20,000 nt of DNA from an uncultured virus (IMG/VR IMGVR_UViG_3300028586_000021) (Duplodnaviria > Heunggongvirae > Uroviricota > Caudoviricetes): the IMG/VR virus record IMGVR_UViG_3300028586_000021, positions 55,697 through 75,696 of that record. One strand, given 5' to 3'. Positions 582 through 16,548 of the stretch are shown here, piece by piece. Both the position numbers and the translations under genes were made by a program. The notes below the pieces were generated by a model, which was given only the letters and a program-made list of their open reading frames with translations, ran no database searches and was not told the origin of the DNA. Position 1 is the first letter of the stretch; every line of letters begins with the position of its first letter.

Positions 582-808
582 TTAAAGGCGGGAATGGTGA
601 GCAAATCGGTTCCTATATTGCTCAATTGGGAAGCGAGACACGAGCCATTCTCCGTTCAGCAACCGAATTGGTGTACTACATGCGAGGTGGCTTGTCATAT
701 ACCGAGGTGATGGCTATGAGTGCAGGTGAGCGAGAGGTAGTTGCTTCATTCATCAATAAGGCAATGAAGAACGCGAAAGATGACCCACGCACTGTGATCA
801 TGCTTTAA
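557..808 (+). CDS. gp51-like baseplate/tail assembly chaperone frame, probably translated as a -1 frameshift extension of the upstream gene
   Basis: This frame is open from 557 (after TAA 554-556) to TAA 806-808. 'GGLSYTEVMAMSAGEREVVASFI' resembles the gp51-type 'SLxEIENMxPWERxIY' motif. The TTG start at 626 has no Shine-Dalgarno. Confidence 0.65.
   Translation, partial: SSKFFFRIIKGGNGEQIGSYIAQLGSETRAILRSATELVYYMRGGLSYTEVMAMSAGEREVVASFINKAMKNAKDDPRTVIML
563..573 (+). promoter_or_regulatory. Putative -1 programmed ribosomal frameshift site (A AAT TTT and T TTT TTT)
   Basis: In-frame GTA AAT TTT TTT TCA GGA TAA contains two overlapping X XXY YYZ heptamers (563-569 and 566-572) just before the stop. 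The -1 frame is open to 808. Confidence 0.7.
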
Positions 809-814
809 TTATCC

Positions 815-1522
815 AAACGCACAGACGTGTAGATCAGCTCGCTGATAGCACGTCTTTTGTTCGCCAGAACAAATACCAAAAATCCGATAGTGGCTCTCGC
901 ATAAACTCCTATGTCATATAAGAGCTCTTACTAGGCCTTCTATCGGATTTGTCTCATGATGCATATCTCTGAACGACTCGCTGTCGCTCGTCAGAAGAGG
1001 TAATTGCTGTCGCACTTCCCTCTTCTTTATTTCCCTATCGGGCTAGTTCTACTACCTATTGGTAGGGTATTCCTCGATCCTCGGGATACTATAGCGCTAT
1101 TCAGCGCCAACCCCAAAAGTCTCAGCATCAGAAACTCTTGTTTTGGTTTCACTCTTCAGGATCAAATGTCGATCCAACCTGCCCAGGTACTGCTTTACCA
1201 GGAATTCGAGTGTGTTTGCGGATACAGTGACGCATACCAAGTAGGACTATTAACCAAACAATTCGTCCTACTTCCGTTATCAATCTTGTGATAACATCTG
1301 GGGAATTTATAAGCTTGAAGTCGTAAAATGCTTTTACGCTAGATAGTTTATAAAACCGAGCGGTCGCCATATGGACATTTGGGCGACTCTTCAAAACGAC
1401 GATTATGGTTCCTCTCGCGTTCTCGGGTTTGTTTATGGATTAGCAGCTCATATCCTGCACACCAACGGGCTGGTTAACGATTCACAGACCCCGAATAAAT
1501 TTCTGACGTATGAGTGTAAACG
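815..1522. ncRNA. Long, densely structured non-coding element (candidate large ncRNA or single-stranded DNA structure/origin)
   Basis: About 750 nt between convergent genes with no credible ORF. At least 14 stems can be read by eye, e.g. 880-890/940-950, 993-1000/1019-1026, 1239-1247/1265-1273, 1306-1315/1345-1354 and 1363-1368/1382-1387. Confidence 0.55.
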
Positions 1523-1555
1523 AAAAAAGCGCACGACATTATATCGTGCGCTTTT
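1523..1555. terminator. Bidirectional intrinsic terminator
   Basis: AAAAAA-GCGCACGA-cattata-TCGTGCGC-TTTT. It gives a U6 tail on the minus strand right after the stop of ORF 1807..1562 and a U4 tail on the plus strand. Confidence 0.85.
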
Positions 1556-1561
1556 GGGCAA

Positions 1562-1807
1562 TTACATGCCTTGTTTGCGAGCTGCCTTCTTCAACTGCTT
1601 GTAAACACCGCGTGCCGAATTCGGATTCACCATCAGGGTGCCTGGTAGGTACTTGATCTGTGGTGGGTTCTCGAGCACGCCTTCCTTAGCTTCAGGAGCA
1701 GCTTCAATGACGAAGCGCTTCGAGTTGCCTAGGTACTTGGTGCTGAATGCTTCGGTTGCCATGGTGGCAGCTAGTTTACGTAGTTTCTTTGCGGTTTTGG
1801 AGTTCAT
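1562..1807 (-). CDS. Small basic hypothetical phage protein (81 aa)
   Basis: ATG start and TAA stop followed immediately by a terminator. It has 16 K/R versus 5 acidic residues, with basic helical ends (MNSKTAKKLRK ... ARGVYKQLKKAARK). Confidence 0.8.
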   Translation of the reverse strand: MNSKTAKKLRKLAATMATEAFSTKYLGNSKRFVIEAAPEAKEGVLENPPQIKYLPGTLMVNPNSARGVYKQLKKAARKQGM

Positions 1808-1953: not shown

Positions 1954-2487
1954 TTATTTCATCCAAAAATCTGCGTGTTTGATTAGGTCCTCAAAGTGGC
2001 AGACTTTGATCCCTTCCAAGATCGTAATGTGCTTCACATCCTCTGGTAGGACGATGTCAGGCTCAACAGCAGCGTAGATAGGAGTGTTGTTGAATTTGAA
2101 GATAAGGATACCACGCTTATCCACTTTAGCAGCATCTGTCGCCGCCTCTCGCATCCAGGAGTAGATGTGTGACGTACCAAACAGAGCTTCCATACGTTCG
2201 GCTTCTTTGTAGAACTTGCACTCAACGACGAAGTTGAATCGTGGATTACCATCAACACACTCGTTGGTTGGTACAACGTCTCCGGTGAACAGAGCGAGAG
2301 TGAGCTTGCTATAGTCGCCCGCTGTTTTCGCATTCATCCCGCCGACGATTGCGCCTGACATTTGACTCTTCTTGAATTTGAGTGGTGCTAGAGCTGCGGT
2401 TAGAATCTTGCTAACCTTCAGTTCAAATGCACCACCCTTTGCTTTGCCGTTAACCTTCTTCTTTACGGTCTTCTTTTCTTCGGTCAT
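1954..2487 (-). CDS. Holliday junction resolvase (Hjc-like PD-(D/E)xK nuclease)
   Basis: Motifs KAKGGAFELKV, GDVV and VVECKFY, located downstream of gp46/gp47. Confidence 0.8.
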   Translation of the reverse strand: MTEEKKTVKKKVNGKAKGGAFELKVSKILTAALAPLKFKKSQMSGAIVGGMNAKTAGDYSKLTLALFTGDVVPTNECVDGNPRFNFVVECKFYKEAERMEALFGTSHIYSWMREAATDAAKVDKRGILIFKFNNTPIYAAVEPDIVLPEDVKHITILEGIKVCHFEDLIKHADFWMK

Positions 2488-2941
2488 GATCCTTCAGTTC
2501 CTGACAATACTCTTGTACTATCACGATTTCAGGAAGAGCAACACTGATGTCCTTCAAAATGCTCACGTCGTAATCACCAATGTCATACGAGAGAGTAATG
2601 TGAGGAATGTAGGTTGGGAAGTCGTGTGAAGCGCCCTCCCAATTCCTTAGAAAATTATGTCGTCCAATTGCTTCTGGACAATCAATCTTTAGGACCAAAC
2701 AGTTCGTGCCACTCTTAGTGCTGAATACGTCAAAGCCAATAGGCCTTGCAATCCAACCAGGAGTAATGTCACGCTGCTTTGGTACATTGGGTAGGTGTTT
2801 GCGGCTATACGCGATTGTGCTGTGATACTCGGCTTGATCAATCAGGTTTGGAACCGCATTAGCAACTCCAAACCCAACCAACTTAGCAACGGTCTCTTCA
2901 TGAAATCTAACAGCGACAAAAGTTCCGTTGTTATGTTTCAT
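2450..2941 (-). CDS. acb1: 2H phosphoesterase, T4 gp57B / anti-CBASS nuclease Acb1-like
   Basis: Two HxT motifs in gp57B-like contexts (YHSTIAYSR and HDFPTYIPHITLSYD), 163 aa, N-terminal GTFVAVRF. Confidence 0.75.
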   Translation of the reverse strand: MKHNNGTFVAVRFHEETVAKLVGFGVANAVPNLIDQAEYHSTIAYSRKHLPNVPKQRDITPGWIARPIGFDVFSTKSGTNCLVLKIDCPEAIGRHNFLRNWEGASHDFPTYIPHITLSYDIGDYDVSILKDISVALPEIVIVQEYCQELKDHDRRKEDRKEEG

Positions 2942-2951: not shown

Positions 2952-4692
2952 CAACCTCAATTCGATCAATTGCGCTGAATCCATTCTCGAAGCGAACAGT
3001 CATCTCACGATCAAAACGACCAATACACTCTGGACGGTGACTGATCACCCAAATGCCTAGGTTGTTTTCTTGTGAGGCCTTCAACTTCACCGAACGAATA
3101 ATAGCTTCGACGCCAGGAGCATCCATCGCACCAGCATCCACCTCATCGACGACCAGAATGTTCACACCAGTATGTAGGTGCTGAAGCATGTCGCGGAACG
3201 CCATGGACAGGGCTAAGTTCAGGCGCTTCTTCTCGCCACCCGATAGATTACCGTAGTCCAACTCACGACCGAACTCTGAGATGGTGCAGGACATGTCAGG
3301 ATTGAACGTGACCATATGAGTCAAGCCCAATGTCTTAGCATGGTAGTGAATCTGCTTATTCAGGAACGGAACAGACTTATTGATGATCTTCTTACGAATG
3401 AACGAATTCTTATCGACCAACAGTTTGAGCAAGAACTTCTGATGCTCAAGGTCCGACTTCATCTGATCAAGCTTCGAGTAATCGACAACCACTTCAGCTT
3501 CGTTGAGCAACTGCTCAAACGCTTCCAAGTGTGGGTTAGTACTTGACTCAACGCCCTTGATTTGAACTTGAACACCCGCTGCGTTTGCCTTGTCGTTGAG
3601 CAAAGCATTCATATTGGGGTAAATCAATTGGCGAGCAATTTCAGCGCGTTGCGATTCTGCCTCATCAAATTTCGTTTGATTCTCATCGCGAATCACTTGG
3701 AACTCTGCAACCTCATTCGTCAGCGAGGTGACTTGGGATTCGAGTTCTTCAATCTTCGCTTGAGTGTCGTTGAACTTCTGTAGGCAGTATGGGCACTTTG
3801 CGTCACGAAGATGAACTAACTCTTCAGTGGCCTTTTTGATCTTCGATTCACGAGCTTTGATCTGAGTATTTGACTCAGTGACCATAGCACGATAATCGCG
3901 TTGCACTGCAACGATATGATCATTCTGGCGATGCAACTCTTCTTGGGCATCAAAGTCAATAGCGGAAATCTTTTCAGCATGAGCCTTCAACGTCGCAATG
4001 CGAGTTTCCTTATCGGTCTCCCACTTGAGAATACGAGCTTCAGCATCCTTGATATGTTTCGCATGGAGTGCTTTAGCTTTCTCCTGTTGCTCACATAACG
4101 TTTGCTGAACTGCAATGTCCTTCTCAAGGTTCTGATTCATCTGCTTGAGGTTGACTGCCTTCTCCGACAGCTTCGTGATCTTGAACATCTCTTCGATGAT
4201 CGTACGCTGTTGCGCAAGCGACATATCGAAGAACGGTTGATCACCGCCAAGGAAGACAACGGTACGTCGGAACAATTCGAAGCTGATGCCAATGATTTCG
4301 ACGAGGGCCTTGTTGACGTTTTCGATCGAGTCAGGAGTCTTGTCCTCACCATTGATCAGCAACTTGGTTTCGTAGTCGGCACCGCGTGAGCGAATGATCT
4401 TGTAATCGATGCCATTGACCTCGAAGGTCAATGTCACGACCATGCTCGTGTTCTTCGCGTTATTCGTGGTATTGATCAAACGTTCCTTACTGATTTTCTC
4501 AAGTGGAACGTTGTAGAGTGCGTAGCAGATTGCGTTCGCGATTGTGGTCTTACCCACACCGTTAGCACCACCTTTGTCGATGTTCTCGCCAAGGATAAGT
4601 GTGGTGCCAACTGCTGAAAGGTCCACGACTTCAGTTTTGTTACCGAAGCCGAGGAAGTTTCTAATGGTTAATTCTTTTAGTTTTAGTGACAT
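2947..4692 (-). CDS. gp46 / SbcC / Rad50-like recombination ATPase
   Basis: Walker A GANGVGKTT, coiled coil with zinc hook CPYC, signature LSGGEK, Walker B ILVVDEVD, H-loop ISH. Confidence 0.95.
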   Translation of the reverse strand: MSLKLKELTIRNFLGFGNKTEVVDLSAVGTTLILGENIDKGGANGVGKTTIANAICYALYNVPLEKISKERLINTTNNAKNTSMVVTLTFEVNGIDYKIIRSRGADYETKLLINGEDKTPDSIENVNKALVEIIGISFELFRRTVVFLGGDQPFFDMSLAQQRTIIEEMFKITKLSEKAVNLKQMNQNLEKDIAVQQTLCEQQEKAKALHAKHIKDAEARILKWETDKETRIATLKAHAEKISAIDFDAQEELHRQNDHIVAVQRDYRAMVTESNTQIKARESKIKKATEELVHLRDAKCPYCLQKFNDTQAKIEELESQVTSLTNEVAEFQVIRDENQTKFDEAESQRAEIARQLIYPNMNALLNDKANAAGVQVQIKGVESSTNPHLEAFEQLLNEAEVVVDYSKLDQMKSDLEHQKFLLKLLVDKNSFIRKKIINKSVPFLNKQIHYHAKTLGLTHMVTFNPDMSCTISEFGRELDYGNLSGGEKKRLNLALSMAFRDMLQHLHTGVNILVVDEVDAGAMDAPGVEAIIRSVKLKASQENNLGIWVISHRPECIGRFDREMTVRFENGFSAIDRIEVV

Positions 4693-16123: not shown

Positions 16124-16161
16124 AAACAAAAATGGCTCCCAATTGGGAGCCATTTCTTTTT
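16122..16161. terminator. Bidirectional intrinsic terminator
   Basis: Perfect 26-nt palindrome AAATGGCTCCCAATTGGGAGCCATTT (16130-16155), flanked by A-rich and T-rich tracts, between convergent genes. Confidence 0.9.
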
Positions 16162-16173
16162 GAATCAAAACTA

Positions 16174-16548
16174 TTAGTCGTTCCAAGCCATGCCGATGAC
16201 GTTGGTATCGCCTTCTTCCCATGGATCAACGGTGAAGAATACGCCTTTCTTTGGGTCTTCCTTGCTGTAGATGAAGTCGCCTTTATAGCCATGTTGGCCT
16301 TTCTTGACTTCATATCCCGCCGCTTTGAAAGCGTCCACGATCTTTTTCATTTCTGCTTTGGTGATCGTTTCGCCTTCACCACCCATGCCACCAATACCAA
16401 ATTCGGTACTTGGGCGACCTTTTTCGATGATCGCTGCTAGCTCAGTTGCCCATGGTTTTAGCTTAACGCTTCCTTTGTTCTTAGCTTCGGCTAGCGGCGA
16501 TGGTTGGCCGCTGATCTTCGCTTCGAAGATGTCTATTAGTTTAGTCAT
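16174..16548 (-). CDS. Small late-expressed hypothetical protein, candidate internal head protein
   Basis: SD AGAGGA, its own GATAAATA promoter-like octamer and a shared terminator. N-terminus MTKLIDIFE-AK ... LAE-AK. Confidence 0.8.
   Translation of the reverse strand: MTKLIDIFEAKISGQPSPLAEAKNKGSVKLKPWATELAAIIEKGRPSTEFGIGGMGGEGETITKAEMKKIVDAFKAAGYEVKKGQHGYKGDFIYSKEDPKKGVFFTVDPWEEGDTNVIGMAWND

Follow-up and report, generated by a model that had tools for sequence, protein, structure and literature searches.

A conserved structured element with a divergent EGFOA-type core occupies a fixed place beside baseplate genes of jumbo phages

Introduction

What does a phage keep in some 750 nucleotides that hold no supported gene? 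The question is posed by the window analyzed here, a 20-kb stretch of DNA (20,000 nt) taken from a 75.7-kb virus record, in which the list of open reading frames (ORFs) leaves positions 809-1561 as the largest stretch without a supported gene, bounded by a gp51-like ORF that ends at 808 and by the next ORF with relatives (1562-1807, minus strand). A first-pass annotation, made from the letters of the sequence, had singled out the gap for its size, and in this it is borne out, the remaining gaps between long ORFs measuring ~150-230 nt. It had also proposed that the gap holds an undescribed large non-coding RNA (ncRNA) or, alternatively, a structured single-stranded DNA element, and had left the functional strand open. 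The 747-nt stretch 809-1555 is found at 100% identity in a 348,873-bp metagenome contig, and the source of the window is therefore a jumbo phage. Here we ask whether the gap is coding, whether its predicted structure is conserved in other phages, which known RNAs it resembles and what kind of molecule it might encode.

Results

Gene neighborhood of the gap

On its left, the gap is flanked by two plus-strand genes. The first encodes the C-terminal part of a gp26-like baseplate hub protein (3-581; Pfam T4_baseplate, E = 3.3e-4, under its cut-off; PHROG 150 'baseplate hub', E = 6.5e-6) and served as our synteny anchor. The second is a small gp51-like gene (593-808) that is convergent with the proposed RNA, its stop codon adjoining the RNA 3′ end. 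According to tblastn, a gp51-like gene adjoins the RNA in 9/9 loci that are positive for R1, the model of the RNA core described below. On the right, a gene encoding a small basic protein of 81 aa (1562-1807, minus strand) lies directly upstream of the RNA and on the same strand. The protein has ten close homologs and no Pfam family, its AF2 model is poor (pLDDT 62), and tblastn places its gene upstream of the RNA in six of the nine R1-positive loci. The 81-aa protein is at most a candidate RNA partner. Past the gap, the minus-strand order runs from the 81-aa gene through genes for a PDDEXK/RusA-like nuclease, Acb1, and Rad50-like and Mre11-like proteins to a weak gp55-like sigma match. The intrinsic terminator of the upstream small gene (1525-1555, minus strand), with a 14-pair stem that includes six G-C pairs and is followed by a T-run, marks the 5′ boundary of the element, and its hairpin is kept with other letters in two related loci (L001 and L007). 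This end had been annotated as a bidirectional terminator; the terminator itself stands, but it is called on the minus strand only.

Non-coding character and folding strength

Three ORFs of 77-95 codons lie inside the gap, none of them with a Pfam or PHROG match. Across eight homologous elements, no ORF is common in place or strand, and the L007 element is without any ORF of at least 50 aa. The changes between the window and the L001 element, counted by codon position, amount to 12/19/14 and 25/19/27 and show no third-position excess, in contrast to the gp51-like gene, where 17/10/29 changes at codon positions 1/2/3 reveal clear codon periodicity. With no shared ORF, no family match and no codon periodicity, the element is non-coding. 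Its conserved blocks are nevertheless 78-81% identical between relatives, against 67% for the neighboring gp51-like gene.

The folding test that had been suggested for the gap sets it apart from shuffled sequences on both strands. The stretch 809-1555 folds with z-scores of -5.83 (plus) and -6.47 (minus), with 0/20 shuffles folding as well on either strand, whereas two 747-nt coding controls yield z-scores of +0.73 and +0.84, with 15/20 and 14/20 shuffles, respectively, folding as well. ARAGORN detects no tRNA or tmRNA gene in the window, in line with the absence of tRNA and tmRNA hallmarks reported earlier. Scanned with Rfam, the 20-kb window yields nothing at gathering score, and GOLLD, ROOL, OLE, HEARO and other large Rfam RNAs are not among the six weak matches obtained at E ≤ 10 in 560-1950.

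Homologous elements in related phages

When 560-1950 was compared as DNA with 50,697 phage records, no match emerged, and the relatives were reached through motif scans and protein synteny alone. A protein-anchored scan identified L001, the gap of which aligns with that of the window, and a pattern derived from the most conserved block identified L007. A looser pattern yielded 45 viral loci; 32 of these present an upstream CCCAGA, and nearly all of the 32 show a stem of at least three pairs around the loop. Homologs of the whole gap, 621-786 nt in length, are present in seven other phage contigs, and ten distinct sequences overall contain the core. The L009, L040, L013, L032 and L037 loci and their duplicates align across the whole gap, which is always followed by the reverse complement of a gp51-like gene. 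Relatives of gp26, with 29-75% identity, were detected by tblastn beside all members aligned over the gap, and in the homologs the element lies in the same place, convergent with the gp26/gp51-like genes. A single copy is found in a complete 360,227-bp genome with terminal repeats, as well as in the window's own record. The comparison of syntenic gaps that had been recommended thus reveals homologous gaps in relatives, with compensatory pairs in the core and in the 5′ junction.

Judged by gp26, the nearest relative among cultured phages is Ralstonia phage RsoM2USA (45.6% identity), which presents an unannotated 1.4-kb stretch after its gp26 gene (L059 4589-5989; MG752970.1 about 251,624-253,024). 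Model R1 matches this stretch on the convergent strand with 55.2 bits (E = 1e-15), and this is the sole copy in 343,806 bp. Inspection by eye further reveals a terminator upstream, a junction presenting the conserved loop of the other members, the G+C-rich hairpin and, at the end facing gp51, a second terminator, which suggests an RNA of ~1.1 kb. R2, the model of the 5′ junction, gives only insignificant matches in RsoM2USA (12.9 and 9.5 bits; E = 0.11 and 0.9), located at other places. The words non-coding, ncRNA and intergenic are absent from the searchable text of the RsoM2USA genome paper (PMC8504454). The unannotated stretch also holds a gp51-like ORF (tblastn E = 3e-9).

Detection of the core is uneven. 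Among 75 viral loci with gp26 relatives, 12 have an R1 match, corresponding to eight distinct sequences. When R1 was run at E ≤ 10 on 56 of the 63 R1-negative gp26 loci, it returned one irrelevant weak match. There is no R1 match in five near-complete relatives or in XacN1, and some R1-negative loci have only ~330 nt between the gp51 and nuclease genes. A missing R1 match may, however, mean divergence as well as loss, because L072 keeps the R2 junction (49.2 bits) without an R1 match. In this locus, ~940 nt separate the gp51-like and 81-aa genes (3390-4330, minus strand), and, in a core that would be too diverged for R1, a CCAGA-type strand and two hairpins can still be seen by eye. Where it is found, the element has a fixed place beside gp26/gp51-like genes in XacN1/RsoM2USA-like jumbo phages.

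Architecture and compensatory changes

The bounds of the conserved non-coding element, as set by an alignment of eight sequences, are 802-1522 on the minus strand (721 nt, read 1522→802; fold z -6.47), and this is the proposed RNA gene. To follow its structure in relatives, a stem was taken as supported when it showed covariation or when a different sequence formed a hairpin at the same place. Model R1 was built on the core (1142-1309, minus strand) from eight sequences with hand-set helices. Once these were realigned, 22 of 29 pairs had changed on both sides, and 89.8% of cells paired, against 31-38% when partners were slid. R1 was then extended to ten sequences by adding L065 and the cultured phage RsoM2USA and by writing in the pseudoknot. 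In this form, 25 of 34 pairs are compensatory and 91.3% of cells are paired, against 28-40% with partners slid; at most 1/500 shuffles attained any of five measures, a control that overstates significance because the 8-10 sequences are related. Both R1 and R2 were fitted to our own structures on these sequences, and slid partners are for them a fairer control than shuffles.

The core contains a five-pair pseudoknot. Its 5′ strand, which reads CCCAG in the RNA sense (1298-1302, minus strand), pairs in 10/10 sequences of the R1 alignment with 1182-1186, which lies within a conserved 17-nt hairpin loop, and two independent double changes from C-G to U-A (in L065 and RsoM2USA) preserve the pairing. 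The hairpin presenting this loop (1178-1202) is conserved in all ten members, with double changes in two of its four stem pairs. The outer helix that encloses it (1150-1154 with 1208-1212) comprises five pairs, with 94% of cells paired, one double change and two one-sided changes, and had been correctly anticipated as a long-range pairing of CACTC 1150 with GAGTG 1208. R1 further includes hairpins P1 (1276-1295), P2 (1239-1273) and P6 (1159-1175). A kissing contact between the loops of H1, described below, and P2 was considered and dropped; it fits the window and fails by eye in L009 and L040.

In RNA order, the core is preceded by a 5′ domain. This begins with stem-loop H1 (1463-1494, minus strand), which was read from the alignments and has a conserved loop and compensatory changes between the window and L007. 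It continues with a three-way junction (H3; 1352-1433, minus strand) that combines a closing helix with an inner helix, whose purine-rich loop is conserved, and with a conserved-loop hairpin. Model R2, which describes the junction, has 17 pairs, 13 of them altered on both sides, and 91.9% of its cells are paired, against 31-47% with partners slid; the junction has no Rfam match. Between the 5′ domain and the core lies a hairpin of variable length (1306-1354, minus strand), which is long in the window and L001 and is replaced by a short hairpin in L007. The 3′ domain (802-1141, minus strand), as drawn from close relatives, consists of a variable hairpin, a G+C-rich hairpin (1093-1108) that is visible in all members, a hairpin at 993-1026, conserved single-stranded blocks, a hairpin at 856-873 and a terminal hairpin at 823-855. 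For this 3′ half, 52 pairs are predicted, and ten of them show changes on both sides in a comparison of three close relatives only. In the first 70-90 nt past the core, RNAalifold predicts 0 pairs on the eight-sequence MAFFT alignment, a result that we take as alignment failure, since two hairpins are visible by eye in each sequence. Beyond the three close relatives, support for the 3′ half is weak.

Most of the stems listed in the first-pass annotation reappear in this architecture, namely 1276-1282/1289-1295, 1239-1247/1265-1273, 1159-1175, 1363-1368/1382-1387, 1094-1107, 993-1000/1019-1026, 856-862/867-873, 823-855 and 1306-1354. Others are particular to the window: stem 880-890/940-950 is present in it but falls inside an insertion missing from L001 and L007, and the hairpins at 1033-1089 are likewise present but not conserved, in a stretch that aligns poorly. 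Three of the proposed pairings had to be given up. Each arm of 1423-1432/1484-1494 belongs to other, covariation-supported helices; the closure of CCCCA 1111 with TGGGG 1299 gives way to the pairing of 1298-1302 with the hairpin loop at 1182-1186; and the closure of CGTCAGAA 989 with TTCTGACG 1501 is not kept in L001. The broader claim, that the gap is a large multi-domain structured ncRNA element under selection, holds, given the many covarying pairs and the conserved blocks that exceed the identity of the gp51-like gene.

Relation of the core to EGFOA RNAs

EGFOA copies cluster and have an associated motif; to our knowledge, the family is an orphan, and we know of no function, host system or genetic context for it. 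The EGFOA motif was described by Weinberg et al. 2017 (PMC5737381), and the accessible text of a preprint (10.64898/2026.07.01.735769) reports that two EGFOA RNAs form, in vitro, a trimer and a dimer by cryo-EM and that the RNA fold has been solved. The Rfam EGFOA model (RF02955) matches the window on the minus strand at 1165-1307 with 24.5 bits (E = 0.063), below the gathering score of 37.7. The Rfam scan advised at the outset thus finds no family at gathering score and a sub-threshold EGFOA. The same model gives 30.4 bits in L032 and L037, no match in L009, L040 and L013 at E ≤ 0.1, and no match in L006, L007 and RsoM2USA at E ≤ 1. Overall, the gathering score is reached by 0/10 members scanned, the best matches having 24.5-30.4 bits. 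In the opposite direction, catalogued EGFOA copies match R1 along its full length, with 32-40 bits. Homology therefore runs both ways, since the Rfam model matches members and R1 matches catalogued copies, and on these comparisons the core is a divergent EGFOA-type pseudoknot fold. To call the element undescribed was hence too strong: its core is of a catalogued kind, whereas no description appears to exist of its 5′ and 3′ domains or of its fixed location in jumbo phages.

The element and EGFOA share the 5′ CCCAG strand, the loop hairpin (GUAAAGC, three variable bases, ACCUGGG), the enclosing helix, their orientation and a setting in long gene-free stretches; that the CCCAG/CUGGG pairing defines EGFOA is our own reading of the Rfam consensus. 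They differ in that, here, two inserted hairpins separate the pseudoknot strand from a conserved single-stranded block and an additional hairpin follows the loop hairpin. In EGFOA, a conserved single-stranded block lies past the 5′ strand and ahead of the outer helix, and a similar block is partly invariant in our members, but the two extra hairpins intervene and cmscan aligned the block differently. Furthermore, catalogued EGFOA spans ~108 nt, whereas the core described here is embedded in a conserved element of 0.6-0.8 kb (~1.1 kb in RsoM2USA) that has a fixed place next to gp26/gp51. Among the first 37 sources, the R2 junction matches only this subfamily, with no match in the other 29, which include catalogued EGFOA loci. 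The large architecture, the 5′ junction, the place beside the baseplate hub gene and a cultured carrier were not found in the searchable literature on EGFOA, which does not extend to the supplement of Weinberg et al. 2017 describing the motif and its surroundings.

Catalogued EGFOA is common in viral contigs: nine of 20 scanned loci reach the gathering score, three fall below it and eight have no match at E ≤ 0.1. Three metagenome loci are true EGFOA, with 53.7-59.7 bits. In a group of 45-66 kb viral contigs (L016, L020, L029, L039, L044, L046, L048 and L052), catalogued EGFOA scores 72-74 bits within gaps of 640-1,900 nt, a crude measure that counts stretches free of long open frames (stop to stop, at least 80 codons). 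These contigs have no gp26/gp51 nearby, and other large RNAs may surround their EGFOA cores.

One transcript or several

Conservation of separate domains raises the question of whether the gap encodes one RNA. It might instead encode two or more small ones, that is, an EGFOA-sized RNA with its start shortly ahead of the pseudoknot strand, a separate 5′ RNA and the 3′ hairpins. Catalogued EGFOA is, after all, only ~108 nt long, and the two domains can be detected apart from each other, with the junction lacking an R1 core in L072 and R2 being insignificant in RsoM2USA although R1 matches there. Moreover, an A/T-rich box (1304-1311), situated three bases before the CCCC run and common to the window, L001 and L007, has what we take to be a resemblance to the T4 late-promoter consensus, and the window encodes the weak gp55-like sigma match mentioned above. 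The box, however, is not kept in L013, L032 and L037, no terminator is called between the domains in the window, and the junction with its conserved loop can be seen by eye in RsoM2USA too. R1 and R2 also occur together, in the same order and with similar spacing, in nine of the ten R1-positive sequences. We consider separate RNAs unlikely. A single RNA of ~0.7 kb would most likely be transcribed, with its start beyond the terminator of the small gene upstream and its end adjoining the stop codon of the gp51-like gene, which is convergent with it.

Signals that would delimit such a transcript are detected in part of the members. RNA-sense terminators are present at the 3′ end of the element in L040 and L037, and none is called there in the window, L009 or L032. 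No sigma-70-like promoter is identified in the window, L009 or L040, and the matches in L032 and L037 are no more than shuffles give. Metatranscriptome contigs from four runs include pieces over 786-936 and 1234-1516 at a depth of 2-3, like the neighboring genes; these contigs are unstranded, show neither ends nor level, and come from a type of library that can hold DNA.

The functional strand

The strand, formerly given as unresolved, can now be assigned with some preference. Counted over the covarying helices, G-U cells in the minus sense number 27 and A-C cells 12, the latter being those that would be G-U in the plus sense, a ratio of only ~2:1. EGFOA matches lie in the minus-strand sense of the window wherever scored, both in members and in catalogued copies. 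The minus strand is thus favored by the Rfam orientation, by the G-U excess and by the L040 and L037 terminators.

Were the plus strand functional, the gap would be a long structured 3′ untranslated or terminator region of a late gp26/gp51 transcript. The plus strand does fold well (z -5.83), RNAalifold yields a consensus for it as well (-113 kcal/mol, against -124 kcal/mol for the minus strand), and the hairpin at 823-855 with its T-run reads as a plus-strand terminator of gp51. Yet this terminator, located right past the stop codon, would end plus-strand transcripts ahead of the element, and both the 27:12 count and the uniform orientation of EGFOA matches point to the minus strand. We regard a plus-strand function as quite improbable.

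DNA element or decayed gene

A role as DNA, whether as a replication origin, a packaging site or a recombination hot spot with hairpins forming in single-stranded DNA, is in our view even less probable. The gap does lie at the junction of convergent transcription units and next to a resolvase-like nuclease gene, either of its strands can form hairpins, and in T4 an origin is located close to the gene 25/26 region. Nonetheless, a covarying pseudoknot and conserved loops are hallmarks of folded RNA, and the core is homologous to a family whose RNA fold, according to the accessible preprint text, has been solved by cryo-EM, which together disfavor the single-stranded DNA alternative put forward at first. 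The gap presents no direct repeats or iterons, only short two-copy matches, and the absence of R1 matches in five near-complete relatives would be odd for an essential origin, though their cores may have diverged. Finally, a decayed protein-coding gene, or a chance run of hairpins and terminators, is hardly credible, for the ORFs of 77-95 codons are conserved in neither place, frame nor strand and lack both a family and codon periodicity, and conservation exceeds that of the flanking gene and is accompanied by compensatory changes.

Discussion

The reading that we prefer, with a probability of roughly 0.7, is that the gap encodes a stable, highly structured ncRNA on the minus strand, with an EGFOA-type center and lineage-specific 5′ and 3′ domains. 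In such an RNA, the 5′ CCCAG strand forms a pseudoknot with the 17-nt loop of the hairpin inside the enclosing helix, and the invariant loops would provide tertiary, quaternary or partner-binding contacts. The molecule would act in trans, as a scaffold made of RNA only or of RNA and protein, with the EGFOA module driving its self-assembly. A self-assembling scaffold RNA is our best guess by analogy, since two EGFOA RNAs form a trimer and a dimer and since, according to the accessible text of the respective papers, GOLLD, ROOL and OLE form RNA-only homo-oligomers (PMC12286853; PMC5737381). The element shares with GOLLD, ROOL and OLE a length of hundreds of nucleotides, many helices, an association with phages or prophages and an unknown function; it differs from them in having no Rfam sequence or structure match to these families, no nearby tRNA genes and a different core motif. 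Because detection is uneven among relatives, the RNA would have an accessory, rather than a core, role in infection.

A more ambitious proposal, which we advance tentatively and would sooner doubt than adopt, is that the element represents a new class of ornate large jumbo-phage RNAs (0.6-1.1 kb). In these, the EGFOA module would be the oligomerization center, and the lineage-specific domains would build a multimeric particle, RNA-only or bound by a small protein, made during infection. If this were true, the EGFOA motifs that sit in other long phage stretches without genes would mark the visible cores of comparable large RNAs, as yet undescribed.

The element places an EGFOA-type core at the center of a much larger conserved, putative RNA, and gives this RNA a fixed place in a jumbo-phage clade and a relative in a cultured phage genome. 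The cultured relative turns an environmental motif into something that could be deleted, probed and imaged. The Rfam threshold misses a whole branch of EGFOA, and the same may hold for the gene-free stretches around other EGFOA copies.

Several further features of the window were recorded. The Acb1 anti-CBASS gene (2450-2941, minus strand; Pfam E = 7.5e-31) overlaps the end of the PDDEXK/RusA-like nuclease gene (1954-2487, minus strand), and the pair sits just upstream of the transcription unit of the RNA; tblastn finds Acb1 in only the three closest of nine RNA-bearing loci, some of which are cut short. In the gp26-like gene, eight consecutive T immediately precede the stop codon (565-581), a feature conserved in L001 (5385-5405) and L007. 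Neither ATG nor GTG occurs in the gp51-like frame ahead of a TTG at 626, yet its homology begins at 593, and both an alternative start and a frame change between gp26 and gp51 are possible. Lastly, each of the four metatranscriptome runs has contigs over 16173-16526, which is true of no other part of the 20-kb window. This stretch comprises a 102-aa ORF (16132-16440) and the bases that follow, and may correspond to a highly expressed late gene or to another stable RNA.
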